Shown here: one piece after another, positions 1-33,401 of the stretch
Layout: the number at the start of each line of letters is the position of its first letter
Numbering within the stretch: the stretch's first letter is position 1
IMG/VR virus record: IMGVR_UViG_3300046011_004498
Location: 1 to 64,000 of that record
Source: a virus
Length of the DNA: 64,000 nt
Reading direction: 5' to 3' (one strand)
Made by a program: the position numbers and the translations under genes
Notes under the pieces: model-generated
What the model was told of the DNA's origin: nothing
What the model saw: only the letters and a program-made list of their open reading frames with translations
Databases searched by the model: none

Positions 1-32
1 AGACCACCGTTAGGTGGCGAGGGCCTCGGGTA

Positions 33-476
33 TTAACCGATGAACGACTTCTTCTGGCGGTTAGCCGGAGGAGTAGCCACGACATCATCCTTCTTGCGAT
101 AGATGGTGACGTAGAGCGGCAGGACACGGGTTTCACCCGGCTCCATCTTGGACAGAGCCTCCAGCTTCAAGTCCTCCAGGAACTCGTTCGATTCGGCCTG
201 CTTGTTGGCGAACTCGACAGTGCCGGCCTTACGGGTGTCCGGGTTCATGTTGTCCAGACCCGTCATCTGGGGCAGATTGACGAGGTCAGTGGCCGGGTTG
301 AAGTCTTCCGACTGCGGATCAACACCGTCACGCAGGGTGCCGATGTTCAGGTAGATGGTGGCACGATCACGAATCGGAACCACATTGTTGGCGCCATTGG
401 CTCCAACGTTAGCCAGAGCATTCATCGAAGCAGCGATGACAGCGGGATCGAAGGTCGAACGCGGGGTAGAGGACAT
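33..476 (-). CDS. N4 gp2/Drc-like ssDNA-binding activator of phage RNAP II
   Basis: YLNIG...VNLP..GLD..and MEPGE...LYVTIYR segments resemble N4 gp2 as recalled. ATG at 476 with GGAG SD, directly downstream of a hairpin promoter. Confidence 0.75.
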   Translation of the reverse strand: MSSTPRSTFDPAVIAASMNALANVGANGANNVVPIRDRATIYLNIGTLRDGVDPQSEDFNPATDLVNLPQMTGLDNMNPDTRKAGTVEFANKQAESNEFLEDLKLEALSKMEPGETRVLPLYVTIYRKKDDVVATPPANRQKKSFIG

Positions 477-510
477 GGTAGTCTCCAAAGTAAGATAAGG
501 GCAAAATCGC

Positions 511-530
511 CCAGACGACACGAAGTGTCG
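511..530 (-). promoter_or_regulatory. vRNAP hairpin promoter (drives the gp2-like gene), predicted +1 at 512
   Basis: Template (+) strand reads CC-AGAC-GACAC-GAA-GTGTC, the N4 geometry of +1 C, 4 nt, 5-bp stem and C-GNA-G triloop. Confidence 0.85.
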
Positions 531-852
531 CCTTTGAACAGAGAGTAGGGTCACTGTTCAGCCGAACAGAGTGCGTGACCTCATGATATTTGCGAATTTT
601 CCCACACCTCTGTGGACACAAACAGCGCATTAGTCATTCCTCACGGGTATGAGGCTGTCGCTTACAATGGTGAAGTATTCCCGCTTCACTAAGGCTTATC
701 GACTCTTTGGTATACACACTCTGCTCGGCTGAGCAGTGAAGGAAGCCTTGATGGACCGAAGCCCATCAAGGGTATCCTGCCTCGAACAGGATAAGATGCT
801 ACGTGCTGCCATTACAGCAGCTAGTTCATAACAACCTCCTGAGATATCACTC
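531..852 (-). ncRNA. Putative ~320-nt structured early ncRNA of unknown family
   Basis: At least 8 tandem hairpins whose G-U pairs form only on the minus strand, a C(UUCG)G tetraloop, its own vRNAP promoter and no convincing CDS. Confidence 0.65.
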
Positions 853-870
853 AATCGGCACGAAGTGCCG
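851..870 (-). promoter_or_regulatory. vRNAP hairpin promoter, predicted +1 at 852
   Basis: TC-AATC-GGCAC-GAA-GTGCC; the stem covaries with the other two copies (GGCAC/GTGCC vs GACAC/GTGTC). Confidence 0.8.
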
Positions 871-4457: not shown

Positions 4458-4533
4458 TGGTAGAAGAGATAGGACTTGAACCTATAACCTCCACGTTATG
4501 AGCGTGGGGCTCTAACCATTGAGCTACTCTTCT
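4458..4533 (-). tRNA. tRNA with CAU anticodon (Met elongator or Ile2)
   Basis: Cloverleaf: AGAAGAG acceptor, CCACG-CT-CAT-AA-CGTGG arm, TTCAA T-loop, encoded CCA. Confidence 0.92.
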
Positions 4534-4723
4534 ATAAAGAACTACAAAAGACGCCCCTTCCCGGAGTGCGTTTGAATGAAAACTCTTGTAGCTCTTCACT
4601 AAAGAGGCCCCAGACCTAAGCAGTTCTCAGCTAATGATCTAGGGCCTCTCGAAGGTTGGAGGGTCTTATTCTCCCGGCACCTTCCTGCCGATCCGAACTC
4701 CATGCAAGCATGGTGTCGAATAG

Positions 4724-4799
4724 TGGTGCTGTCTGTAGGGATCGAACCCACGACACCCAGTTTACAAAACTGGCGCTCTACCAACTGAGCTAAGACAGC
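4724..4799 (-). tRNA. tRNA-Thr(UGU)
   Basis: Cloverleaf, CCAGT-TT-TGT-AA-ACTGG arm, GTTCGA, CCA. Confidence 0.95.
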
Positions 4800-4804
4800 A
4801 ATAA

Positions 4805-4881
4805 TGGCGATCACATCAGGACTCGAACCTGAGACCCTCTGCTTAGAAGGCAGATGCTCTATCCAGCTGAGCTATGTGACC
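4805..4881 (-). tRNA. tRNA-Arg(UCU)
   Basis: Cloverleaf, TCTGC-CT-TCT-AA-GCAGA arm, GGTTCGAG, CCA. Confidence 0.95.
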
Positions 4882-4892
4882 AAATACAGAAG

Positions 4893-5011
4893 TGTTGGTT
4901 TAATGTTACTTGACGTTTCCCGCGTACACCCATCGGAAGAGCACAACGATTTGATCTAACTATCACAAGTTAGACAATAACATTACTTTGATTTCCTGCG
5001 TTAAACCAACA
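4893..5011 (-). ncRNA. Putative ~120-nt structured RNA between tRNA-Leu and tRNA-Arg
   Basis: Closing stem UGUUGGUUUAA/UUAAACCAACA, inner UAAUGUUA/UAACAUUA helix and two hairpins. Confidence 0.5.
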
Positions 5012-5045
5012 AATTGACAGGAGGAGGACTGGCTCTCCGATCTTT

Positions 5046-5131
5046 TGGTGCGAGCTAAGGGACTCGAACCCTTACACCATTACGATAACAGATTTTAAGT
5101 CTGGTGCGTCTACCAGTTCCGCCAAGCTCGC
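5046..5131 (-). tRNA. tRNA-Leu(UAA)
   Basis: Class II cloverleaf with long variable arm, CT-TAA-AA loop, CCA. Confidence 0.93.
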
Positions 5132-13192: not shown

Positions 13193-13505
13193 ACTAGAAA
13201 ATGAGCGTAGGGAGTTCCGCCGAAAGGTAGAACTCCTTATTGCTTTAGACCAACTCAAGCATAATGTTTCTTTTCAGAAGCTTATTCTGAATGGATTTAT
13301 GAAAGATGAAGTAATACATCTTACTCGTATTGCTAATAAAGCAATGACGGCTGAAGAAAAGTTAGCTAGAAGCAACCAAGCACAAGCAGCTTTTGTTCTA
13401 GAAGATTACTTTAGTCGTGTACGTAATGAAGGTGAGGATGCTAGGGAAAAGATTCCTGAGCTAGACCGACTCATCGAAATTAAAGAAGAAGAACCTGAAT
13501 CATGA
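13185..13505 (+). CDS. N4 gp58-like hypothetical protein
   Basis: FQKLILNGF motif and synteny. Confidence 0.7.
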   Translation: MSELENERREFRRKVELLIALDQLKHNVSFQKLILNGFMKDEVIHLTRIANKAMTAEEKLARSNQAQAAFVLEDYFSRVRNEGEDAREKIPELDRLIEIKEEEPES

Positions 13506-14716
13506 AGATTACTGATTTTCAAAACATGAGTGATGAAGACATTGCTGGTCTTACTGACTCTTCCTTTGATACTTCTGATATTGTTCCTGAAGAACAACAA
13601 GAAGAGCAAACTGAAACTACTCCTCCTGTTGATGAAGAAGTCGAGGACAAGGCTGAAGCCGACGAAGTTGGAGCCGCAGGCGACAACGAGGAAGGCGAGA
13701 AGCCGAAGGACGAAGACGTTTCTGATTCAGACTTCGACAAGCAAACACCGCCTACTGAGCAGGTCGCTGTAGAGAAAACAGTAGAAGAAAAGAAAAAACC
13801 TCCTGTGGCTGAAGAGCCTAAAGAAGGTAATGTTCCTGCTGAAGAAGCTCCTTCAATTAATTATGAAGAAGCTTATAAGAAGTTAATTGGGCAACCAATT
13901 AAAGCAAACGGTACTGAGATCACTCTAAGAGATGCTGATGAAGCACTTAGACTGATCCAGAAAGGTGCTGGCTACGAGAAGAAGATGGAGGCTTTGAAGC
14001 CTGCTCGTAAGTCTGCTGCAATGCTAGAGGCTGCTGGTCTTCTTGGAGACGACACAGCGTTGTCTCATATGATTGATCTGTACAATGGTAACCCTCAAGC
14101 TATTGCAAGATTAGTAAAAGATCTAAAAATTGATATCTTTGCTCTAGACTTAGACGCAGGTGATCAATATAGAGCTGTAAGTCATCTTCAAACAGATGAA
14201 GCGGTTACCTTTACTGAGACGCTTAAAGAGGTTCGCACCCTTGAAGGCGGTAAGGAAGCACTGGCGCTCATCGATTCCTGGGACCAACCGTCCAAGGACG
14301 CAATTTGGGGAAATGCTGAGGCAGTCCGTCAGATTTTTGAGTACAAGCAATCTGGTGTCTATGACACTGTTGCCACTGAAGTCGAACGTCGTCGTACCCT
14401 TGGTCAAATCCCCGCTGGCACTCCCTTCATCCATGCCTTCAAACAGGTTGGTGACGAGATGGCTAGAGCAGCTGAGGCTCAAAATCCAAGCCCTGCGGTA
14501 GAACGTACTGTGAATACTCCTGCTAACGTGCCTGCGAAGCCCGTTGCTAGAACTCCGGTACATTCTGGTCCCGCACCTCGGAAGGTTGAAACCCCAGATG
14601 TCCGCGCCGCTGCTGCTGCTTCCCCTCGGGTTGGCTCCGGCGTAGCGAAACAAGTTCCTGATATTTATTCGCTGAGTGACAAAGACATAGAAAATATGTC
14701 TTCGCCTCCGGCATAG
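13502..14716 (+). CDS. N4 gp57-like protein (probable scaffold)
   Basis: Acidic N-terminus, KANG motif, position upstream of the MCP. Confidence 0.75.
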
Positions 14717-22740: not shown

Positions 22741-22780
22741 AAAAAGAAAGCTCCTCACATATTGTGGGGAGCTTTTTTTC
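22741..22780 (+). terminator. Intrinsic (probably bidirectional) terminator upstream of vRNAP
   Basis: AAAGCTCCTCAC/GTGGGGAGCTTT stem with flanking A and T tracts. Confidence 0.75.
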
Positions 22781-22826
22781 TGATACAGAAGACGGGTTAT
22801 CCTGCATTTGCACGGGCCGTTATATT

Positions 22827-25800
22827 ATGTCGAACGAACGTTTCCTTTCAGCAGTTCCTCAAGAAGCTGTAGAACCTGACTATTATAATGTAGGTGCTGC
22901 AAGATACCGAGGTAATGGATCGTTAGTTCCGAACGAACGCTTCCAAGATGCCCGCACAATGAATGCGGATGAGTTGGTAGCAAAATACGGCGAAGAGCAG
23001 GGCTTACAAATTCTTCGAGCTCGTGCAGGTGGGGATGCCTCTTTTCACGGAGATTTAGCATCTACTCGTTCAGGTCTTGCCCCTATAACAGATACAGCAG
23101 GTAGTGCTGCTACTGCTCTGTTTGGTGGATTAGGTGGTATTGCTGCTCTCGGTACTGGTCTTGTTAATCAAGATGCAGGTGTTGGTTTAGCAGACATCGT
23201 AAATGAAAATAGTGCTTGGGCCAGAGAGAACCAATCCTATGCTTTGAATGCACGACGTAGAGCGTCAGCTGCACAAGCAAATGTTAGTTCTGCTGATAAC
23301 CAAGCACGTTATGAACAAGAGCGAGAAGATGGTGAGGGTTTAGCCACTATCAGACGTATTGGTCGTAACTTTGTTGATCAATCTGCCATTACTGTCAGCG
23401 ATGGAATGCTGGTAACAGACAGTGTTGCTCAGGGCGTTGGTTCACTTGCTGGTGGTGGTGTAGTTTCCGGTGGCTTGAAAGCAATTGGTAGACAAGCTCT
23501 TACACGTTTTGGAGCTGGTCGTTCTGCTGCTGTAGCTATTGCTCAGCCTCGTGTTTACGATGCAGCTGTCGCTACTGGTCGAGTTCTCGACCGTAGTCGT
23601 ATGTCTTTAGCTATTGGTGCGCTTGAGGGTGGTGGTGCTTACACAGGCACAATCGATCAAGTGATGGCAATGTCTCATGATGAGCTTCTTGAAAGCTCTC
23701 AGATGTACAGAGAGCTTATTGATGCTGGTATCAATCCAGCCAGAGCAAAAGCTAGAGTTGCTAATAGAGCCGGTCAGATAGCTGCTGCAATCCAAGCACC
23801 TATCGGTGTAGCAACTGGTGCTTTAGTATCTAAGTTTGAAGCCAATCCTTTACGTGCTGGCTCATTCTTAACTGGTGCTTCTAACGTTCTTAAAGAGACA
23901 GTTGAAGAAGGTATTCAATCTGGTTCAGGCCAGTTTGCCCAAAACGTTGGTATTAGGTCTGCGGCAGATAATGAATATAACTTAAGCCAAGGTGTCGGTG
24001 AAGCTTCTGCTGAAGGAGCTATCGCTGGTGCTGGTACAGCAGGTGTGTTTGCTGGTCCTTCGGCAGTTATGGGTACAACAAGAGATTTAGCCCAAGGTGC
24101 TGCTGATTTAACTAGAAGACAGATTGATTCTCTTATTAATAAAGGAAGAGAAGAAAACAATCGTAATAGTGTTGATGCTCAAGCAGAGATTTCAAACGTT
24201 GTTAGAGCTGCTGTAGCTCCTAAAGTTTATGTTCCTACACAAACTGAAGGCATTGATCCTATCGATGATGAAGCTGAATTTACTACATACCAGAATGACT
24301 TAGCTGCTTTGGGTCAGCAGTTTGGGTTTGATCCTCAAACTTATGAACCAAAGACAGAAGCTGAAGCACGTCTGTTAGGTAGTATTCCTGCCGAGGAAGC
24401 TTCCAACATTATTGATGTGATGCAAGCAGCTGCCAATAGAATGGCAGAGCAAGATGCTACACCTGAAGAACGTCTTGAACTGGCTCTGTTTATTCATGAA
24501 CAACAGAACAGAATTACACCTGAGAATCTTGAAGCTGTCAGAGCATTACAGGCTAAAGTAACACCCGGTGGTGCTATTGCTAATGATCTGAAAACAATCA
24601 TTACTGCTCAAGCAGCTATTACAGACAACATCCTTTTCAAGGATAGTCTTGAAGCTGCGCTGAAATCTGTACCTCCGATAAAGGTTGAAGATGTTGAAGA
24701 TATTTCGACGCCGGAAGGTCAAAGGGCTGCAAGGACGGGTGCCCTTCAAACTATGCTCTTCCCGGAGACCGTACCCCAAGAAGTTCTCGACAGACTGTTC
24801 AAACACTCTGAGAATGACGATGCAGGCGAAATCTTTACGCCGCAGCAAAAGGTCGCTCTTCGTACCGAAGCTATGCTCTCAAAGACGCTCCAAGCGTCCA
24901 CAGCTGCCGCTGAAGTCTTGGGTGTTAAGCCTCCCGAAGCATCTCGTGTAGCCTTTGAAATCCAGTCTGCTGATGCTCAGGAAGCTGGCTCAGCAGGGCC
25001 ATCTGTTCGTGCTCACACAGAAGGTGTGAACAGACTGAAGGCCATGGGTGACACTGCTGGTGCAGCTGAAATGCTGGCTGAGTTTGGTAACTTTGCTCAG
25101 CACATGGCTAACAAATTAGCTGCTGTGAATGAGTCGTTCGTTGGTCGTACTGAAAAGAACTATAATCCTGAAGTTTTTTATCAAGCCTACAATAGAAAAA
25201 CTAAGGAATGGTACACACCCAAAAAGGGTTGGACTGTTGCTCGTTTTGGTAAGAATCTGAAGTCAATTGTGGATTCTCAGCAGATTGGTATCGATGCTGA
25301 GTACACTATTGATTCGTATAACCAGTTAGTTGCAGAAAATCCTGAACTTGGTCTTAAGCCTGTTGAAGCTATCCGTATGGATTCTGGGCTTAAAAAGATT
25401 GCTGATCAGGTGTTCAAAGATGCTAAGAAAGCAGACTTTGATGAAAAGAATCCTGATATTGTAGCTAAACGTAGTGAATCTACTACAATTGAAACAAAAC
25501 AACAAAATAATACAACAGATACTAAATCAACTGAAAAGAAAGTTGAACCTGTTGTAGAGCCAGATATCAAACCTTCTGTTGTTGTTGATGATCTTAAGAA
25601 TGAATCTATTCCTACTCTCGTTGCACTTCTGAAAGAAGTACAAGAACTTAAGGATGAAGTTAAGTTTGAACGAGTTGCATCTGAACTTCGTGTTCGTAAA
25701 CTTGAAGCTGAAGCAGCAAAAAATGCTGCTCAAGTTCAAGCAGCTGAAGTAGTCGCAGAACCGAAGGCGGAGCCGGAGGTTCAAGCGACGGAAGAAGCTG

Positions 25801-28800
25801 CGCCTGTTGAAAAGAAAACTACTTCTATCAAAGAAGAGTTTCCTGATCTGATCCAATCTACATCTGGAGAGAACCTGCTTCTTGATGGCTTCTCCCTAGA
25901 TGGGGAAAGTCAGACTCGTTTGGTTGGTGAAGGTGCTATTGCATTAGAAGATGTCATAGCAGCGGTAACCAATTCAGATGCTTTTGCAGAGATTACTGAA
26001 GAGCCTGAAGCAAAGCTTTCTGGTGATGTCACTCGTGCGTACAGCAAAGTTATGGGTGCTATTCGCCTCCCAATTTACACCCGGTTAATGGCTAGGTTTG
26101 CTGGAAGACGACTGAAAAAGAACGAGAAAATCTTTACGCCTGTTATGGATGGCAGAACGCCTTTGGATAAGAGTGATCCTCTTGGGATTGCCAACACCGA
26201 AGCACGCCTGCTCAGCTTGATGGAACGTAAAGAAGACGGTTCTCTGAACTATAACGACAAGATTCTGACAGCAGGCTTACTGGCCTTAGCCGATTGGTTG
26301 GCTCAGAACAGTGTAACTTCGCCTCATAGAGATGCCGACAGTGTTGCAAGATCACTTAATCTTACTCGTCAACCTATGTTGGTTGATGAGGAACTGGTGA
26401 ATGCATTTAATAAAGGTACTAATATTACGATAGCACAACGTTCATTAGCTAATAAGATTGAAAGATATCTTGGTCTTAAAGCAAATGCAGACGTTCCTAT
26501 TGGTCTTTCTCATGGTGTGACCTTAGGCTTTGCTGCTGAACTTCTTCGTGCAGCTGTTGAAGCAAAGTTTGTTCAGACTGAATCTGTTTATAAGTCTGAT
26601 GAGTTTAACTTTGTGTTTGTTAACGTGAACACAGATGAATTAGGTCTTGCTAAGTATGGGCAAGAAGGACCTAACTTTAAGGGTCAAACCAGACTCATTG
26701 AACGTATCGTCACAAATGATGAGAGAGCGGTTGGGTTTGCTCTGAAGCCTTCCGGTTTTGCTAAGAAAAAACAGAAGGGTGGTAATGCTGTTACGACGCC
26801 CGAGCAGATGGATACAGAGGTTCGTGAAAACGCTGTAGGTCACGGACTGAACATGCCTGTGTACGAGCGTTACGCACGCCTTGGTCCTGATGGTATGCTG
26901 CGCCTGTTTGGTAATGGTGTGCTGCCGCCTACCATGAACAAGAACACAAGGCTGTCCAAAGAGAGCCAGAATACTTCTGTGAAGGGAGCCTTCCAGACGA
27001 TCTTAGGTCTGATTGATCAGATGCAGACGGCTGTTAGTACAGCTACTTCTGCCGCTGAACTTAAAGATATTCGTGTGTATTATGAGTACATCTTTACCTC
27101 TGTAAATCGTATGCAGCAGCAAGCTGCTTACGGGAACCAATCATCTAAGATGGTTCGAGAGGTTCTGACTCCTAACGGTAACGTTGTAGACTTATCTTCT
27201 ACAGACACTGCTGATTATCAAATGTGGCGTAGAGGTCTGGCTCAGGCTTTAGGTATTAAAGTTGAACTCCAGTTTGATAGTGTCTGGGATGCTAACTTAG
27301 AGAAAATCTTGCAAAGCGAAGAAACACAGAAAGCTGTTTCTATGCTTCAAAACTATACCAATGTTGAGCCAAATGCTCTCATTGATGCTGTGAAGGATGT
27401 ATTCCGCAATAAGAATAACCCTCTAATTGATCCTGAAGTTCCTGAAGTAGGGTTCCATGCTTTAGTATCTTACGCCGATTATCTGACAGCTAAAGCGAAC
27501 GGAACAGCATCTGCCTTTACCACTCACATCTATGTGGAAGCAGACGGTAAAGTGGACGGTGCCACTAACTCGCTGTTCTATATGAGACTGGGTGGTTTTG
27601 ATCTTGAGATGATTGAAGCCCTGACAAGAGGTGGTTTCGACTTCAGCAAGACACCTATCTCATTGGCTCAAACCTATGAGCCTAATGCAGAGGGTGTTGT
27701 TCCCGGAGATGCATATCAAGTCAGTGGTGTTCGCACTGGTGTCTATATGCAGGAGACAATCCAGAATGTGATTTCCAAGGCTAATGATTCTGCTCAAAAG
27801 TCTAAGCTTATCAATCAAGTTGAGGCAATGAACATCGTCATGACAACGCTGCTTGGCTCTAAGGAGTTCAGGTATAAGCGAGATGGTGAGCAGTGGAATT
27901 TCGAGATCGGTCGTGGGCAGCTGAAAAACCCCATGACAATTACTGTCTATGGTTCAGGTGTTAAGGGCATTGCTGACAAAGTAGCCAAAGAGCTGGCTGG
28001 TAAATTGTATGAAGAAATTTCCAGAGCCAATGCATTAGCTGTTCAGAATAAACAGCCCGATAACTGGGCTACTTTCATGTTCTATGATGGTGGTAAATTT
28101 ACAGAAAGTGCCACTAAATCTGTGACATTCTGGAAAGCTCTTGATGTTCTGACTTCTGCAAGTGTTCGTAGTTTCACCGACGATGGTGGTCAGCAGAAAT
28201 ATTATACCAAGAAAATGGATGAAGCCCGTGCTCCGGGAACTTCAACATCTGCTGTTCAGTACACACTGAAAGCTCAAACTTTAGAACTGTTGTCTGATAC
28301 AATTAGACAGTTCTACGTAAGGCCAATGGTTGATGCTATCAACAAGGAGATGGGTTCATCTATTGATGGTTCTAAGTTGATTCAAGAATCAACAAACTTA
28401 CTGTCCTCGTTAGCTAGAGCAGCATTTGATCGACTCATCGCAGTTGAGATGCAGAAGATCAAAAACAAGAGCGATGGTCTGTCTCCTAACCAGATCAAAA
28501 CCATCATGTCTAAGGTAGCTTTCCTGCTTCCTTACATTGAAGGTGATGAGATCAATATCAACGTTAAGGGACTGGAGATGTCCCCAATTAACGTAATTGA
28601 TCCTAAGACAGGTAAACCAAGCAGAATTCCATACGCATCGACCATGAATGGTCCTATTTTCACGCAGTTGGAAATTCCTACACCGCAGATCGCAGGTGTG
28701 GCTGGTGGTTCATATCTGAACATTGCTTATGGTGATGGTCGTATGATCATCAAGGCTTCCCCCGGTCTGATCGGTGGTCGTCTTATGATCTTCGACGGTA

Positions 28801-31800
28801 TCAATCTGTCGATTAAAGATGCGATTGCAAATGGTGTAGCTATTAACAAAACTACGCTTGATGCCATTCAGTCTGGGACACCGTTCTCTGACTTGATGAA
28901 AACGTTCAAAGAACTTACTGAATCATTCAACTTAAGTGTCTTTACTGAAGAAGAATTGAACAGTGTTGTTGAAAATAACACTGCTGATGAATACAATTTA
29001 CCTGATGAACTGACACCTTCTGATTTTGTTGAAGGTCTTATCTTTAGTCTGACAAACAGACTTGATCTTGCATCTAAGCAAGAGCGAGCTCGTCAGGCTA
29101 CGTTGAAGCGTGTTCACCTGTCTTCAGACCACATGGCAGCAATCAATGCTCCTGCGTCTACGGCTGCTGACAATAGCCGTGAAGACCTTGGTGCTTTGAC
29201 TCCTGAAGAGAAGGCAAAACGTCTGAATGAAATCTACGAGGAAGAGCTCGCTAAGATTGAGAATGCACCTGTAGTCAAAGACAACACTTCTGAGAACATC
29301 AGTAGTGCTTTCGACAACTTGCCTAAGCATGAGACTGGAGTTCGTATTACGAACACAGCTCAGCTTACTGAACAATTGAGCAGCCTTAATCTTCCTAGAG
29401 AGCAAGCTACACTCATCAATCGTGCTTTGATCGCTCTGAAGAATGATAACTGGACGGTCGTTATTGGTTCCAAGAGAGCAGCTACAGATTACCTTACAAC
29501 AAGAGGTATCCGTCACACCTTCAAGAAGGGTGACAATGGTATTGCTGCTCCGGGTCAGAAACTGATTGTGGTGGCTAATGGTTCGTCTGAGACTTTGGCT
29601 CACGAGCTTATCCATGCTGCGACCTTTGATAAGGTAGATGCATTCTTCAGTAACCCTGAAGTGCTGGAACCAGCTGTAAGAGCTGCTTTAGAACGTCTGG
29701 TTATTCTACAAAATGAATGGCTTAGTGCCACTTACTTACGCAAAGTGAACGGACCTGACGACACTGTGCTTCATGCAAGAGCAGCTATTGAAGGCTTCTT
29801 GAGAAAGGGAGATCAGTCGTCTGCTTTGAATGAATTCATGGCATGGAACTTGGCTAACCAAGGTCTGATGAATCTGAACTCTAAGATCAAAGTTGAAAGC
29901 AAGCTGGCTCGTATCACCAGAGAGATGGTTTCTCTGCTTAAGCGTATGTTCTCTCTGCCTGACAATAATGATCGTATGGATTGGAACATTCGTTTCAACT
30001 CCTTGATTGTTATTGGCAGCAAGCCACTTACACCCACCCTTCAAGCAGCTAATCGAATTCTTCAGCACTCTACTGGGACTCGTCCTGATCTGGATGACAT
30101 CGCTCAGAAGATGGCTAAACTTGTTGGTCGTGCTGATATCAATCCTGAGCTTATGAAAAAGCTCAAGATTAAACCTAGTGAAATGGCCTTAGCTTATGGT
30201 GAAAATGCAGCCATTATTGCTAAAGCTAATGGCTTTGACATGAGTAACGAAGAACAACGTGCTTTCGTTATGATGGTTGCTGCTTATCATGCGAACCAAA
30301 TTGCTGATCCCACCTTCAACGTTAAAATGAATAACTACTACAGCGAAGTGCTGGAGCAGTTAGACCAAAACGTTATGATGATGGACAGGGATTCTAAAGA
30401 CCCAGCAGAAGCTGCACGCGCTGATATGCGTTACGATATCCTGCGTGGTAAGTTCGATATGGGAGTCGATATGCTTGCTGTGTTTGTGGCCTTAGGCGCT
30501 ACAAACGAGATTGCTCAAACGCTCTTCAGTCGTATTCGCGTCAGAGACAAAAAGCTGTCCTTACAAGGTAACACTGTTGACAGTGTGCTGCGTAAGGATG
30601 GCGCAGCCCTGATCGATAAGCTGATGGATAACTCCTACAGCCTTCGTCCAAATCAGAAGATTGGTGATGAAGTTCTTAAGCTGGCTGTAGCTATGGTTGA
30701 GAAATCTGATCGTGAGCAAGGACTTCTGAACAAAGCTTTCGGTGAAACTGGTAACTTTGTTCGCAAGGCTAACGACAAGCTGGCGGACACCATTTCCTAC
30801 GGCTTAGGGAAGACTGCTGACGCGATCCAACAAGGAATCGATGCCTCGAAGGGTACATCCTTAGAGGGCGTTGTAGGACCCCTTGGAGACGTTCTGAAGC
30901 TGGGTGTCGAAGTCATGGATAAAGCTAGAACGCAGGATGCTGTGTCTAAGCTGACTTCCATGCTTAACAGCAATGATATTCATCCTGAAATCAGAAGCAT
31001 CATTGTAGAACTTATGGGTTCTAATGAAGATAACCAGACTATCTTTGAGCTGATCAAAAAGGGTCGAATGGTTATCGATAAAGTTCGTCAGGCATTCTTG
31101 AAGGGTATGCCTAAGCAAATCAAAGATAAGTTTACCAGAACTCTGACTAAAGAAGAGTGGGCTGCTCAGCACTTTGCTTATGGTCAATCTGACATCTCTG
31201 TTCTGTTGGATCAGAAGATGTCTATTGAAGGTATCATTGATCTGTTTGCTACACCGTCTTCTATTCCTCAGCTTCTGTCTCAGAAGGAAGCTGAAGTTAA
31301 GAGACTGTTTGGTAATCAAGCTAACACTATCCTGAAGGAATCGTATGATCTTGCACAAATGATGGATCGTGGTCGTCCTTCAAATGGATTGGTTAAGCGT
31401 AATGCTCTGGCAATTGCTAACCGCGCAGGTGAAGCGACAGTTGGTACATTTGACATTCTGAGCCCAGAAACCAAGGCAATCGACGGATATGTGTCCTTGT
31501 TGGTTCTGTCTCGTATGCAACCAGATATGATGAACACACTCAGCACTTTAGCTAAGACTGAGCGTGTTGGTATGGAGTATGCATTAGCTCTGGTGGCTCA
31601 AGCTCGCGCACATGAGATGAAGCGTGTTCCTGAGCGTCATAAGTACAATATCAACAAGGGCTATATGCCCACTGAAAAGCTTGGTTCGTTTAAGGCTGTG
31701 CCTTACGATAAAGTTAATGAGTATACCAAGGTTGGGTATAAGATTGTTGGTAGTAGAACTATTGGTGCTGTCGAAGGTCTGTATGATAATGGAAAACAAC

Positions 31801-33401
31801 GTGTTTATGTTGCTACTGATTTAACAGCTCCTGCTGTTAAACAAGGTATCATGCGTACCATTCGTCCTACTGTGTTTGGTTTAGATATTTCTAGCGGTGC
31901 TTCGTATGACAACCCGTCTGCTGGATTGATTACTGACATTACTGCTGTGAGACAAATCACTAAAGCTCTTCAAAAGAAGAGTGATAATGATAAGCTTCTT
32001 TCTCCTCTTTATAATAAAGATGGTGAAATCTATGCTTATGAGAGATTAGTTGATATAGCTGATGTCGAACACAATCTTGAAACTCAACAGAATGTAGCTG
32101 TGTCTGTCGGTATGTGGATGGGTCGTCAACATGAAGAAATTCAAGCACGCATCATTAATGATGTGCTGATTGAGCGTATGGCTAAAATGTATGAGACAGC
32201 GGGTCGTCGTGCACAGACTGACGAGTTTGTTGATCTGAAAGAATTAGCTGCAACTGATCCTGTAATTGCTGATGCTATGTCCTTGATCAATGATCAGGAT
32301 ATGAGGGAAATCTACGCCCGTATGGGCGGTAAGTTCATGGTCAGAAAAGACCTGTACAATAACATTATTGGTTTCCGAACCATGAGCATTGGTGATCTCT
32401 GGACGGGTAACACCACTCTTGAGAAGAATAATAGAGAAGCAGCAGCTAACTTCCTTACAGGTATCTTAGGTCCTGAAGCTTACCGTCGTTTAACTGTCGG
32501 TGAACAAGCTTGGGAAAACCTGATGGGAGATGCACGTACTGCTATCGTTATCAAATCTATGTTGGTTCCAGCATTGAATGCTGCGGCTAACTTCTTTCAG
32601 CTTATGGCTAACGGCATTGGTCCTATTCAGATCGCCATGAAGACGACTGAAATGCTCAGAGAGACTCATTTCTATGCACAAAAGCAGTTAGAGCTTCAGA
32701 GCTTAGAAGTGGATTTGGCTAGAGCACGAGGAGCCAAGCGTCCAGATGAGGTTCGTATTCTGGAAACCAAGATGCGTGTCATTGAAGATATCATCAAGCG
32801 TCTGGCTATCTATCCTCTGATCCAAGCAGGTGAGTTTAACCAGATTACCGAGGGTCTTACTCAAGATGATCTGGAAATGACTAAAGGACGTATGTGGGAT
32901 CGTGTTAGTAAATGGGCTGACAAACTTCCGCCTGCTGTGAAAACTGCTGGACGTTATGCTGTAGTGGCTAAAGATACTGCTCTGTTTGATGGTCTTACAA
33001 GAACTGTTGCCTATACAGACTTTGTTGCTAAGGCAGTTCTCTATGATCATCTGACAAGAGTTGTTAAAAAGACCAAAGCAGAAGCCTTGCTGGCTATTAC
33101 CAACGAGTTTGTAAACTATGACTTACTTGCAGGTAGAGGTCGCACAAAAGCTGAAGCTCTTGGTTTAGTTTGGTTCCCTTCCTTCAAGATTCGTTCGATT
33201 AAAGTTGCTGCTAGTTTGATTAGAAACAACCCGCTTCATACGTTCTTGAGTTCACTGGTTCCGGGTTCTTACGAAGCTGGTACAGTCATGGATGATAATG
33301 GGGTCAATCTCATTCTCGATGGTCGTGCAGATAATGCATTTGGTATCTGGAATGCATGGAGAGGTGCTGCACTTCTTCCTGTTGCTCAGGTAATTAACTA
33401 A
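22827..33401 (+). CDS. Virion-encapsidated RNA polymerase (N4 gp50-like)
   Basis: ~3520 aa; SVNRMQ, motif A YVEADG, motif B RGQLKNPMTITVYGSG, motif C IFDG, HELIH; no Cys seen from MSNERF onward. Confidence 0.96.
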   Translation: MSNERFLSAVPQEAVEPDYYNVGAARYRGNGSLVPNERFQDARTMNADELVAKYGEEQGLQILRARAGGDASFHGDLASTRSGLAPITDTAGSAATALFGGLGGIAALGTGLVNQDAGVGLADIVNENSAWARENQSYALNARRRASAAQANVSSADNQARYEQEREDGEGLATIRRIGRNFVDQSAITVSDGMLVTDSVAQGVGSLAGGGVVSGGLKAIGRQALTRFGAGRSAAVAIAQPRVYDAAVATGRVLDRSRMSLAIGALEGGGAYTGTIDQVMAMSHDELLESSQMYRELIDAGINPARAKARVANRAGQIAAAIQAPIGVATGALVSKFEANPLRAGSFLTGASNVLKETVEEGIQSGSGQFAQNVGIRSAADNEYNLSQGVGEASAEGAIAGAGTAGVFAGPSAVMGTTRDLAQGAADLTRRQIDSLINKGREENNRNSVDAQAEISNVVRAAVAPKVYVPTQTEGIDPIDDEAEFTTYQNDLAALGQQFGFDPQTYEPKTEAEARLLGSIPAEEASNIIDVMQAAANRMAEQDATPEERLELALFIHEQQNRITPENLEAVRALQAKVTPGGAIANDLKTIITAQAAITDNILFKDSLEAALKSVPPIKVEDVEDISTPEGQRAARTGALQTMLFPETVPQEVLDRLFKHSENDDAGEIFTPQQKVALRTEAMLSKTLQASTAAAEVLGVKPPEASRVAFEIQSADAQEAGSAGPSVRAHTEGVNRLKAMGDTAGAAEMLAEFGNFAQHMANKLAAVNESFVGRTEKNYNPEVFYQAYNRKTKEWYTPKKGWTVARFGKNLKSIVDSQQIGIDAEYTIDSYNQLVAENPELGLKPVEAIRMDSGLKKIADQVFKDAKKADFDEKNPDIVAKRSESTTIETKQQNNTTDTKSTEKKVEPVVEPDIKPSVVVDDLKNESIPTLVALLKEVQELKDEVKFERVASELRVRKLEAEAAKNAAQVQAAEVVAEPKAEPEVQATEEAAPVEKKTTSIKEEFPDLIQSTSGENLLLDGFSLDGESQTRLVGEGAIALEDVIAAVTNSDAFAEITEEPEAKLSGDVTRAYSKVMGAIRLPIYTRLMARFAGRRLKKNEKIFTPVMDGRTPLDKSDPLGIANTEARLLSLMERKEDGSLNYNDKILTAGLLALADWLAQNSVTSPHRDADSVARSLNLTRQPMLVDEELVNAFNKGTNITIAQRSLANKIERYLGLKANADVPIGLSHGVTLGFAAELLRAAVEAKFVQTESVYKSDEFNFVFVNVNTDELGLAKYGQEGPNFKGQTRLIERIVTNDERAVGFALKPSGFAKKKQKGGNAVTTPEQMDTEVRENAVGHGLNMPVYERYARLGPDGMLRLFGNGVLPPTMNKNTRLSKESQNTSVKGAFQTILGLIDQMQTAVSTATSAAELKDIRVYYEYIFTSVNRMQQQAAYGNQSSKMVREVLTPNGNVVDLSSTDTADYQMWRRGLAQALGIKVELQFDSVWDANLEKILQSEETQKAVSMLQNYTNVEPNALIDAVKDVFRNKNNPLIDPEVPEVGFHALVSYADYLTAKANGTASAFTTHIYVEADGKVDGATNSLFYMRLGGFDLEMIEALTRGGFDFSKTPISLAQTYEPNAEGVVPGDAYQVSGVRTGVYMQETIQNVISKANDSAQKSKLINQVEAMNIVMTTLLGSKEFRYKRDGEQWNFEIGRGQLKNPMTITVYGSGVKGIADKVAKELAGKLYEEISRANALAVQNKQPDNWATFMFYDGGKFTESATKSVTFWKALDVLTSASVRSFTDDGGQQKYYTKKMDEARAPGTSTSAVQYTLKAQTLELLSDTIRQFYVRPMVDAINKEMGSSIDGSKLIQESTNLLSSLARAAFDRLIAVEMQKIKNKSDGLSPNQIKTIMSKVAFLLPYIEGDEININVKGLEMSPINVIDPKTGKPSRIPYASTMNGPIFTQLEIPTPQIAGVAGGSYLNIAYGDGRMIIKASPGLIGGRLMIFDGINLSIKDAIANGVAINKTTLDAIQSGTPFSDLMKTFKELTESFNLSVFTEEELNSVVENNTADEYNLPDELTPSDFVEGLIFSLTNRLDLASKQERARQATLKRVHLSSDHMAAINAPASTAADNSREDLGALTPEEKAKRLNEIYEEELAKIENAPVVKDNTSENISSAFDNLPKHETGVRITNTAQLTEQLSSLNLPREQATLINRALIALKNDNWTVVIGSKRAATDYLTTRGIRHTFKKGDNGIAAPGQKLIVVANGSSETLAHELIHAATFDKVDAFFSNPEVLEPAVRAALERLVILQNEWLSATYLRKVNGPDDTVLHARAAIEGFLRKGDQSSALNEFMAWNLANQGLMNLNSKIKVESKLARITREMVSLLKRMFSLPDNNDRMDWNIRFNSLIVIGSKPLTPTLQAANRILQHSTGTRPDLDDIAQKMAKLVGRADINPELMKKLKIKPSEMALAYGENAAIIAKANGFDMSNEEQRAFVMMVAAYHANQIADPTFNVKMNNYYSEVLEQLDQNVMMMDRDSKDPAEAARADMRYDILRGKFDMGVDMLAVFVALGATNEIAQTLFSRIRVRDKKLSLQGNTVDSVLRKDGAALIDKLMDNSYSLRPNQKIGDEVLKLAVAMVEKSDREQGLLNKAFGETGNFVRKANDKLADTISYGLGKTADAIQQGIDASKGTSLEGVVGPLGDVLKLGVEVMDKARTQDAVSKLTSMLNSNDIHPEIRSIIVELMGSNEDNQTIFELIKKGRMVIDKVRQAFLKGMPKQIKDKFTRTLTKEEWAAQHFAYGQSDISVLLDQKMSIEGIIDLFATPSSIPQLLSQKEAEVKRLFGNQANTILKESYDLAQMMDRGRPSNGLVKRNALAIANRAGEATVGTFDILSPETKAIDGYVSLLVLSRMQPDMMNTLSTLAKTERVGMEYALALVAQARAHEMKRVPERHKYNINKGYMPTEKLGSFKAVPYDKVNEYTKVGYKIVGSRTIGAVEGLYDNGKQRVYVATDLTAPAVKQGIMRTIRPTVFGLDISSGASYDNPSAGLITDITAVRQITKALQKKSDNDKLLSPLYNKDGEIYAYERLVDIADVEHNLETQQNVAVSVGMWMGRQHEEIQARIINDVLIERMAKMYETAGRRAQTDEFVDLKELAATDPVIADAMSLINDQDMREIYARMGGKFMVRKDLYNNIIGFRTMSIGDLWTGNTTLEKNNREAAANFLTGILGPEAYRRLTVGEQAWENLMGDARTAIVIKSMLVPALNAAANFFQLMANGIGPIQIAMKTTEMLRETHFYAQKQLELQSLEVDLARARGAKRPDEVRILETKMRVIEDIIKRLAIYPLIQAGEFNQITEGLTQDDLEMTKGRMWDRVSKWADKLPPAVKTAGRYAVVAKDTALFDGLTRTVAYTDFVAKAVLYDHLTRVVKKTKAEALLAITNEFVNYDLLAGRGRTKAEALGLVWFPSFKIRSIKVAASLIRNNPLHTFLSSLVPGSYEAGTVMDDNGVNLILDGRADNAFGIWNAWRGAALLPVAQVIN

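Follow-up and report, generated by a model that had tools for sequence, protein, structure and literature searches.

A two-codon frame at the 5' end of an N4-like phage early leader: a probable truncated upstream start that may still load a ribosome

We analysed the first 64 kb (64,000 nt, here called the window) of the IMG/VR virus record IMGVR_UViG_3300046011_004498, which is 72,847 nt long. Directly behind a predicted early promoter, on the minus strand at 840-821, it carries a Shine-Dalgarno (SD)-like hexamer followed by a two-codon frame, AGGAGG-UUGUU-AUG-AAC-UAG (plus strand, ctagttcataacaacctcct). A sequence-only reading of this DNA had proposed a lambda bar-type minigene on an early non-coding RNA (ncRNA). 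Its sequence facts were confirmed, but the relatives do not bear out the minigene. We tentatively favour, at a little under an even chance, a truncated upstream open reading frame (uORF) in the leader of a gp2-like gene, on which SD and AUG may continue to bring in a ribosome in cis.

Results

The frame changes length among relatives

Two full-length leaders were compared, our own and that of a metagenomic locus (L083), together with difference tables from four contigs (X5, X7, X8 and X9) over 440-1100; these tables omit 11 substitutions, which probably lie above 833 and in X8 only. The X5 and X7 contigs are about 90-95% alike. In both, a T-to-G change at 822 (plus strand) turns UAG into UCG, and the frame runs on to the UAA at 814-812, giving five codons (Met-Asn-Ser-Leu-Leu). 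In X8, 822 is deleted, 825 is changed from T to A, and the spacer carries three changes; if nothing else differs, this would leave a frame of nine sense codons that stops at 801-799. X9, with no listed change in 821-840, is the only one of the four contigs that retains UAG.

The sequence-only reading had held that a sense codon in place of UAG in relatives would point to a decayed gene. Indeed, such a codon was found in X5 and X7 (UCG) and in L083 (CCG), and X8 is frameshifted. The frames of the relatives (five codons in X5, X7 and L083, about nine in X8) end in Leu or Thr codons, not Asn, and neither the two-codon layout nor the final Asn codon is conserved. Since CCG, UCG and UAG form a series of one-base steps, the two-codon frame would be a recent derivative. 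As judged from these contigs, the two-codon form is a strain-level state.

The L083 locus has the same gene order as our record and a homologous, shorter leader of 210 nt. This leader contains the hairpin promoter, the run GGGAGAG, a 6-nt spacer, ATG AAC CCG CTG CTG TAA, hairpin 1, a cUUCGg hairpin, CUUCCUUUU, and both palindromes (Table 1). Its frame has five codons (Met-Asn-Pro-Leu-Leu), and the spacer and the flanks differ from ours; the SD-like run and ATG AAC lie at the same distance from the promoter hairpin as in our own leader.

Relatives of this region are scarce. Megablast and blastn searches with the region found none in the phage collection, and neither the exact 20-mer of the motif nor the pattern CTGAACAGTGACC-N5-8-CTGTTC had a match in IMG/VR. 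The 16-mer of hairpin 1 was present in 95 IMG/VR stretches, and among the best 80 of these 95 that were listed no fetched locus was homologous by nhmmer; one of the 16-mer matches, L144, was a chance match in coding sequence. Of the loci selected through the large terminase subunit gene (TerL; 80 of 212 kept, close relatives at 85-91% identity), the contigs end before the early region, and an nhmmer search with the leader found nothing in them. The protein encoded behind the leader (147 aa) has 26 relatives of 50-87% identity in a large protein collection. In the Joint Genome Institute (JGI) metagenomes its relatives were confined to L083 (58% identity) and a second locus, L084 (56%); no relatives of the protein or its alignment were found in IMG/VR or in GTDB genomes, nor did the GTDB genomes yield a relative of the stretch itself.

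A predicted N4-type promoter precedes the frame

The record contains a 3,545-codon frame at 22764-33401, which is an N4-like marker, and the neighbouring frame at 13502-14716 gave tblastn matches to Schitoviridae (N4-like) phages. On the strength of these two markers, we class the virus as an N4-like phage. Promoters of the N4 virion RNA polymerase have, on the template strand, a 5-7 bp stem and a 3-nt loop, with A or G at -11, G at -10, C at -9, G at -8 and C at +1 (PMC4496689). With the loop centre (863) set as -11, the template of the distal hairpin, CGGCAC-GAA-GTGCCG, follows this rule at -11 (A863), -10 (G862), -9 (C861) and +1 (C852). Position -8 departs from it, being A in all four promoter-type hairpins of the record, and is taken as a lineage variant.

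These four hairpins lie at 516-530, 856-870, 2744-2756 and 67963-67977, and each is followed by nnTG(G/A)G on the minus strand. Counting stems of 5 bp or more whose plus-strand loop is GAA, the record contains eight hairpins, half of which (4/8) have the form (C/G)AC-GAA-GT(G/C). The two promoters near the frame, distal and proximal, share a 25-nt repeat with 76% identity. No differences are listed for the distal promoter in any of the four contigs.

A predicted +1 at 852 is reasonable on this basis, and AGGAGG then starts at +13, i.e., 12 nt after +1, in agreement with the sequence-only reading. In LUZ7, transcripts start 13-14 nt from the hairpin centre (PMC9163698), which would correspond to 850/849 here; G850 is altered in the X5, X7 and X8 contigs. 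The hexamer would be complementary to the 16S rRNA of the host, and the spacer UUGUU at 834-830 places it 5 nt before AUG, within the 4-9 nt expected of an SD.

The frame may be a remnant of a promoter-proximal gp2 start

The identity of the gene behind the leader was approached through a chain of links. The 147-aa protein matched a homologue in locus L070 by tblastn (29% identity, E 2e-7), and jackhmmer linked it to 31 ORFs in the fetched N4-like loci. The L070 homologue in turn matches 200 phage records, including gp2 of G7C, which is annotated as similar to N4 gp2. Direct matches of the 147-aa protein in the phage collection were limited to OLIVR phages (E 1e-4). By way of these links, the protein is a divergent member of the N4 gp2-like family, and its cofactor function is putative. 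N4 gp2 is a single-stranded-DNA-binding cofactor that recruits phage RNA polymerase II (PMC4496689).

Searches of Pfam and of PDB profiles gave no match for the 147-aa protein, and in PHROGs it fell into phrog_4099, a group of unknown function; its AlphaFold model is of low confidence (pLDDT 56.5). An hhalign comparison with LUZ7 Drc was not significant (probability 0.45%, E 0.13). There is a local resemblance, A-[ST]-x-YLN...RDG-x-D, between residues 31-56 of the 147-aa protein, the most conserved part of the family, and residues 12-38 of Drc.

Of the 31 family members, 23 have a GC-rich hairpin in the 460 nt before the gene start, the nearest 40-143 nt away (210 nt in L083); in the other eight, none was found in that interval. 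In L014, L031, L038, L039, L046, L054 and G7C, an in-frame extension of the gene begins directly behind the hairpin. These extensions comprise 25-36 codons, with in-frame changes in length, and share an SD of the form AAGGA (AGGA or GGAT in three), an ATG start (GTG in L014) and the consensus M[NH]P[LI][LI][IF]E[IL]LS.... In G7C gp2 the extension is 25 codons long (HQ259105, CDS 1256-1732; L182, region 1256-1350). The L039 extension begins ATG AAT CCA CTT CTT, compared with ATG AAC CCG CTG CTG in L083, so that all 8 of the first and second codon positions are identical and all 4 third positions differ. Because the G7C-like promoter-proximal start opens the gp2 extension, and one member begins with Met-Asn-Pro-Leu-Leu, the comparison suggests that the mini-frame is a truncated remnant of the promoter-proximal start of gp2. 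In L014, ATG TGA stands at the place matching the mini-frame.

Table 1. Features of the early region (positions in the window unless stated; all on the minus strand).
Feature	Position	Strand	Remarks
Upstream 68-aa early gene	1080-874	-	Stop 3 nt before the distal promoter hairpin; L083 and L084 carry homologues at the matching location
Distal N4-type early promoter hairpin (predicted)	856-870	-	RNA sense CGGCAC-TTC-GTGCCG; perfect 6-bp stem, 3-nt loop; template (plus-strand) loop GAA
Predicted transcription start	852 (N4 rule) or 850/849 (LUZ7 spacing)	-	
AGGAGG, SD-like hexamer	840-835	-	Unchanged in the listed differences of X5, X7 and X9; L083 counterpart GGGAGAG; core predicted to be paired
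AUG AAC UAG, two-codon frame	AUG 829-827, AAC 826-824, UAG 823-821	-	
CUG CUG UAA, remainder of the five-codon frame open in relatives	820-812	-	Common in-frame stop UAA 814-812
Hairpin 1, GCUGCU / GGCAGC (predicted)	805-821	-	Identical in L083, hence uninformative
Hairpin 2 (predicted)	773-793	-	Absent from L083
Hairpin 3 (predicted), 11 bp, cUUCGg loop	746-771	-	Best-supported RNA helix
CUUCCU, one predicted partner of AGGAGG	740-745	-	L083 counterpart CUUCCUUUU; the data at hand allow no covariation
5' arm of the predicted 25-bp long-range duplex; alternatively palindrome CTGCTC-N4-GAGCAG	714-739	-	Conserved in L083
Variable central domain	577-713	-	Absent from L083
3' arm of the predicted 25-bp duplex; palindrome CTGTTC-N4-GAACAG	551-576	-	
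Proximal early promoter hairpin (predicted)	516-530	-	CGACAC-TTC-GTGTCG; presence varies among close relatives
Hairpin GGGCG-AUUU-UGCCC with U-rich tail	512-499	-	5' hairpin of the proximal transcript; no other terminator-like site on the minus strand within 1-1300
147-aa early gene 476-36 (stop 35-33) with SD GGAGA 486-482	33-486	-	Divergent N4 gp2-like family member
Part of the large terminator hairpin (with U-run) behind the gene	4-30	-	Second arm at record positions 72709-72726 (the record is closed on itself)

The leader is strongly folded in silico

All RNA folds reported here are thermodynamic predictions. The leader is far more stable than its shuffles (-131 kcal/mol, z -6.2; z -7.0 for L083). 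When 852-531 is folded to minimum energy, AGGAGG forms a helix with the CUUCCU at 745-740 and closes a three-hairpin junction. The multi-branch junction described by the sequence-only reading was thus recovered, but the choice of partner depends on the stretch that is folded: with the fold run on to 440, AGGAGG prefers 457-450, inside the downstream coding sequence, with a pair probability of about 0.6 versus about 0.24. The CUUCCU partner is transcribed roughly 95 nt after the SD. The predicted structure neither proves nor excludes access of a ribosome.

These folds bear on the most serious alternative, which we regard as doubtful but clearly worth weighing, namely that the start is a silent relic. 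In that case, the purine run would act as a helix strand pairing with a CU-rich stretch, AUG and stop would be unused leftovers, nothing would be translated, and any role of the leader would rest on its structure. The SD core is paired in every fold tried, CU-rich partners exist in both our leader and that of L083, and the content of the frame drifts freely, all of which a relic would accommodate, as it would the high predicted stability of both leaders. It would also fit the preservation of hairpin 3, in which 4 of 11 pairs are changed on both sides and kept between our leader and L083, two are changed on one side and kept, and none is broken. However, the partner of the SD shifts with the fold window, and that helix shows no covariation. 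The helix that contains AUG (833-827 with 803-797) is struck by three listed changes in X8, none of them compensated. Moreover, L083 keeps a GGAG core at working distance together with ATG, despite the changed spacer and flanks, which would be unexpected for a relic at 58% identity of the neighbouring protein.

Elsewhere in the leader, hairpin 1 loses one pair in X5 and X7 (809) and one in X9 (818), and the C-to-U change at 723 in X5 and X7 keeps a pair of the long duplex as G-U. The two palindromes may fold apart or together as the 25-bp duplex, a possible RNase III site; between our leader and L083 one loop pair is changed from C-G to A-U and one is broken. For the word CTGTTC, 1.8 copies are expected in the first 2,600 nt and seven are present, a number that 1 of 200 shuffles reaches. 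Four of the seven copies are in the leader (536-541, 564-569 and 784-789 on the minus strand, 554-559 on the plus strand), and two are also present in the L083 leader; it could be a protein-binding word.

The transcript is more likely a leader than a free-standing RNA

From the predicted +1 at 852 to the start of the 147-aa gene, the 5' leader is 376 nt long. The sequence-only reading had named this transcript an early ncRNA. In L083, X5 and X7, a single promoter precedes both the mini-frame and the gene. X5 and X7 have deletions totalling 19 nt (513-533 region) that remove the proximal hairpin, L083 has none, and for X9 no difference is listed. Because there is no second hairpin in L083, X5 and X7, no promoter other than the distal one is visible for the gene there. 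What was called an early ncRNA is therefore more likely the structured 5' leader of the mRNA for the 147-aa gene. The simplest reading is that the 376-nt leader has gained a further promoter, close to the gene, in our own strain and in X9; hairpin promoters seem to be gained and lost as small cassettes, by insertions or deletions of about 20 nt.

A free-standing early ncRNA acting in trans, which would end at 512-499 or be cut at the 25-bp duplex and would offer its SD as a decoy for ribosomes or 16S rRNA, appears improbable. In its favour, the gene has a proximal promoter of its own in our strain, the hairpin at 512-499 resembles a terminator and carries a U-rich tail, and RNase III could cut the 25-bp duplex. 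Yet relatives lacking the proximal promoter would need read-through to express the gene, and the L083 counterpart of the 512-499 hairpin has no U-rich tail. Between 852 and 513, no terminator-like site was found on the minus strand, and a large terminator hairpin stands behind the gene. The central domain is dispensable, because L083 lacks it altogether and X9 has 543-741 replaced by 65 other letters. A covariance search with Rfam gave no match that would support such an RNA: only four tRNAs reached the gathering score in the window, and 400-950 gave two snoRNA matches at chance level (E 1.9 and 9.9).

The longest frames on the minus strand between 852 and 477 that do not enter the gene have 26-27 codons. 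A 73-codon ORF (409-630, minus strand), which has an ATG start preceded by GAGGA at a distance of 7 nt, runs across the proximal promoter and, in a different frame, across the beginning of the 147-aa gene.

The two-codon layout does not point to a bar-type minigene

The bar minigenes of lambda are two-codon frames (AUG-AUA-stop) that are toxic in hosts defective in pth. Like them, the frame described here belongs to an early transcript of a phage and consists of AUG, a single sense codon and a stop behind a strong SD, so that the formal layout is present. A toxic minigene of this type would be highly translated and would release fMet-Asn-tRNA, starving the host of tRNA-Asn or tying up ribosomes during takeover; the sequence-only reading had put forward such a trap. 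We consider it very unlikely. Unlike bar, the frame has two, five or about nine codons depending on the relative, its last sense codon varies, and its SD is predicted to be closed by pairing. The bar-like layout occurs only in our own strain and apparently in X9, and its UAG is a single step from the UCG of X5 and X7. In addition, the phage has no tRNA-Asn gene with which to spare itself: the four tRNA genes at 4458-5131 (minus strand, in the early-side block) are Met-CAT, Thr-TGT, Arg-TCT and Leu-TAA. The transcript is probably very abundant, by analogy with drc of LUZ7 (PMC9163698), which would suit a minigene.

The motif by itself is within chance expectation. AGGAGG occurs 27 times in the record on both strands together, and AGGAGG-N4-9-ATG six times; three of these six sites are genes (193, 65 and 64 codons), and the other three open frames of 25, 8 and 2 codons. 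In 300 first-order Markov shuffles, we counted on average 3.9 such sites and 0.22 two-codon versions. Pure coincidence of AGGAGG, ATG and stop is nevertheless most improbable, although a two-codon version appeared somewhere in 19% of the shuffled genomes and two other non-gene AGGAGG-ATG sites exist in the record, because the site has precisely the place that the start of the first cistron takes behind the other early promoters and because an SD-like run with ATG AAC recurs in the divergent L083 at the same distance from the promoter hairpin.

Two further ideas were rejected. Decoding of TAG as an amino acid would extend the frame no further than the UAA three codons later, and the phage lacks a suppressor tRNA. 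A group I intron or a translational bypass joining the mini-frame to the gene found no match in Rfam, and the in-frame stretch before the main ATG includes the promoter hairpin; in X5 and X7, the deletions of 19 nt put it out of frame. To our knowledge, a two-residue peptide cannot carry a bypass signal such as that of T4 gene 60.

Other features of the region and the record

The last 126 bases of the record (72719-72847 region) repeat positions 4-129; although nominally linear, the record represents an assembly that closes into a circle of about 72,721 nt. A block of minus-strand genes extends from about 6000 across the junction to about 37900. The runs containing the stretch are lake, river and freshwater metagenomes.

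The transcript of the fourth promoter (L002 5895-5960, about 67895-67960 of the record, minus strand) opens with a hairpin GGGCCA...TGGCCC, followed by UUUCAUUU and then by the SD AGGCAGG and ATG. This GGGCCA...TGGCCC leader element looks like an attenuator or a 5' stabiliser.

The G7C-like extension is hydrophobic (MHPLIIEILSFCLG...) and precedes a strong internal SD and ATG of gp2, so that long and short forms may both arise. N4 gp2 activity was found with the membrane fraction (PMC4496689), and a hydrophobic head could explain this. In L054, the extension carries a 33-nt in-frame insertion with two small sense-strand GAA-loop hairpins (GTCGC-GAA-GCGAC and CCATAC-GAA-GTATGG). Annotation of the gp2-like genes in the phage collection is inconsistent: besides 'ssDNA-binding protein' and hypothetical, the labels 'integrase' and 'RNA polymerase RNAP1 subunit A' are in use, and these last two look like carried-over errors.

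Discussion

In the explanation that we favour, the element is a ribosome-binding site and the start of a very short upstream frame, 12 nt from the 5' end of a folded leader. Between this old promoter-proximal start and the gp2-like gene, 190-340 nt of structured RNA would now be interposed. The frame would have been closed after five codons in relatives, after two in our strain, where one base turned a Ser codon into UAG, and after about nine in the frameshifted relative. An initiating ribosome, with AUG at +24, would cover the whole unpaired 5' end and would hold open hairpin 1 and the helix between the SD and CUUCCU. It would thereby shield the leader from 5'-end-dependent decay or alter its fold. 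The function, if there is one, would lie in loading a ribosome in cis and not in the peptide, the position of the stop or tRNA-Asn. A bolder version, which we think on balance unlikely, is that the promoter-proximal start, having lost its reading frame, is kept purely as a landing site at the very 5' end of a transcript of the injected virion RNA polymerase, with the host ribosome serving as a removable protective cap and unfolding device for the structured leader of the transcription-switch gene while the length of the frame (2, 5 or about 9 codons) drifts.

Several observations weigh against a start that is still in use. L084 belongs to the same clade as our record and has one hairpin promoter 70 nt before the gene, with neither such a leader nor the mini-frame. 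Conservation of SD and AUG rests on a single divergent full-length relative, L083, the close relatives being too similar. In X8 the SD may be touched by some of the 11 substitutions outside the listed differences. In 821-834 of X8, five changes fall on the 11 non-AUG positions and none on AUG, for which the chance probability is about 0.3. Decay of the peptide is visible (Pro, Ser, stop, frameshift), and this fits a functionless relic and an initiation-only site equally well. The SD core has a predicted probability of being unpaired of at most 0.07, and opening it would cost about 5-10 kcal/mol. No RNA run is among the listed runs that contain the stretch. The proposed origin from gp2 meets difficulties as well. 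The match over Met-Asn-Pro-Leu-Leu comprises five residues only, the starts of L039 and L083 are both shaped by 5' hairpins, and past codon 5 the leader has no similarity to the G7C-like extension above that of shuffles. In the tree of gp2-like proteins, our record, L083 and L084 sit together on a long branch (2.82) and are not sister to the G7C-like clade.

Known systems offer partial parallels to a truncated start that loads a ribosome. The STAB-SD of cryIIIA is an SD near the 5' end that stabilises the mRNA without starting translation, in a Gram-positive background and against a 5' exonuclease. Both elements lie close to a 5' end and far from the main start. Unlike the element described here, in which AUG is kept, STAB-SD has no start codon. 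The long form of G7C gp2 likewise starts directly behind an N4-type hairpin promoter, in the same gene family, and its relative L039 begins Met-Asn-Pro-Leu-Leu. There, however, the frame continues into gp2, whereas here it is closed after 2-9 codons, with structured RNA in between.

In E. coli, ribosomes on short uORFs with a strong SD impede the scanning of RNase E from the 5' end, and the length of the uORF has little effect (PMC9943677). Our element resembles these obstacles in being a 5'-UTR frame with a strong SD, and in that system only occupancy matters. The obstacles of that study are engineered reporters, whereas the site discussed here is natural, lies 12 nt from the predicted 5' end and would be on a transcript of the virion RNA polymerase. 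A minimal frame without a useful product is also known from the start-stops of E. coli yecJ and hslR (bioRxiv 10.1101/520783), and one reading given there is that the early stop limits the harm of an unwanted start. Those start-stops are located within genes, and their start is followed by no sense codon, in contrast to the leader site with its one sense codon (AAC) between start and stop. In LUZ7, tandem early hairpin promoters drive drc, the most transcribed gene of that phage and a functional counterpart (PMC9163698). Both phages have two hairpin promoters, predicted ones in our record, before a small early gene for a cofactor (putative in our record) of the middle-transcription polymerase; those of LUZ7 are described as 33 nt apart, whereas ours are separated by 340 nt with a folded RNA in between, and the second is missing in relatives. 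A literature search on N4-like phages and non-coding RNA gave nothing similar among the best 15 of 80 matches, from which we do not claim absence from print.

When an early RNA of a phage shows a perfect SD in front of a two-codon frame, a bar-like story of host takeover suggests itself. The relatives show how fragile that reading is, as the position of the stop varies even among near-identical strains. The element looks like a fresh instance of an already known kind and not like a special two-codon device. It provides a natural case in which an SD and AUG may be kept without a product near the 5' end of a transcript made by a non-host polymerase, and to which the idea of an RNase E obstacle would be applicable. 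For annotation, the promoter-proximal ATG taken as the start of gp2 in G7C is not universal in the family. In this freshwater N4-like lineage, the gp2-like gene is preceded by a modular leader that is predicted to be strongly folded.

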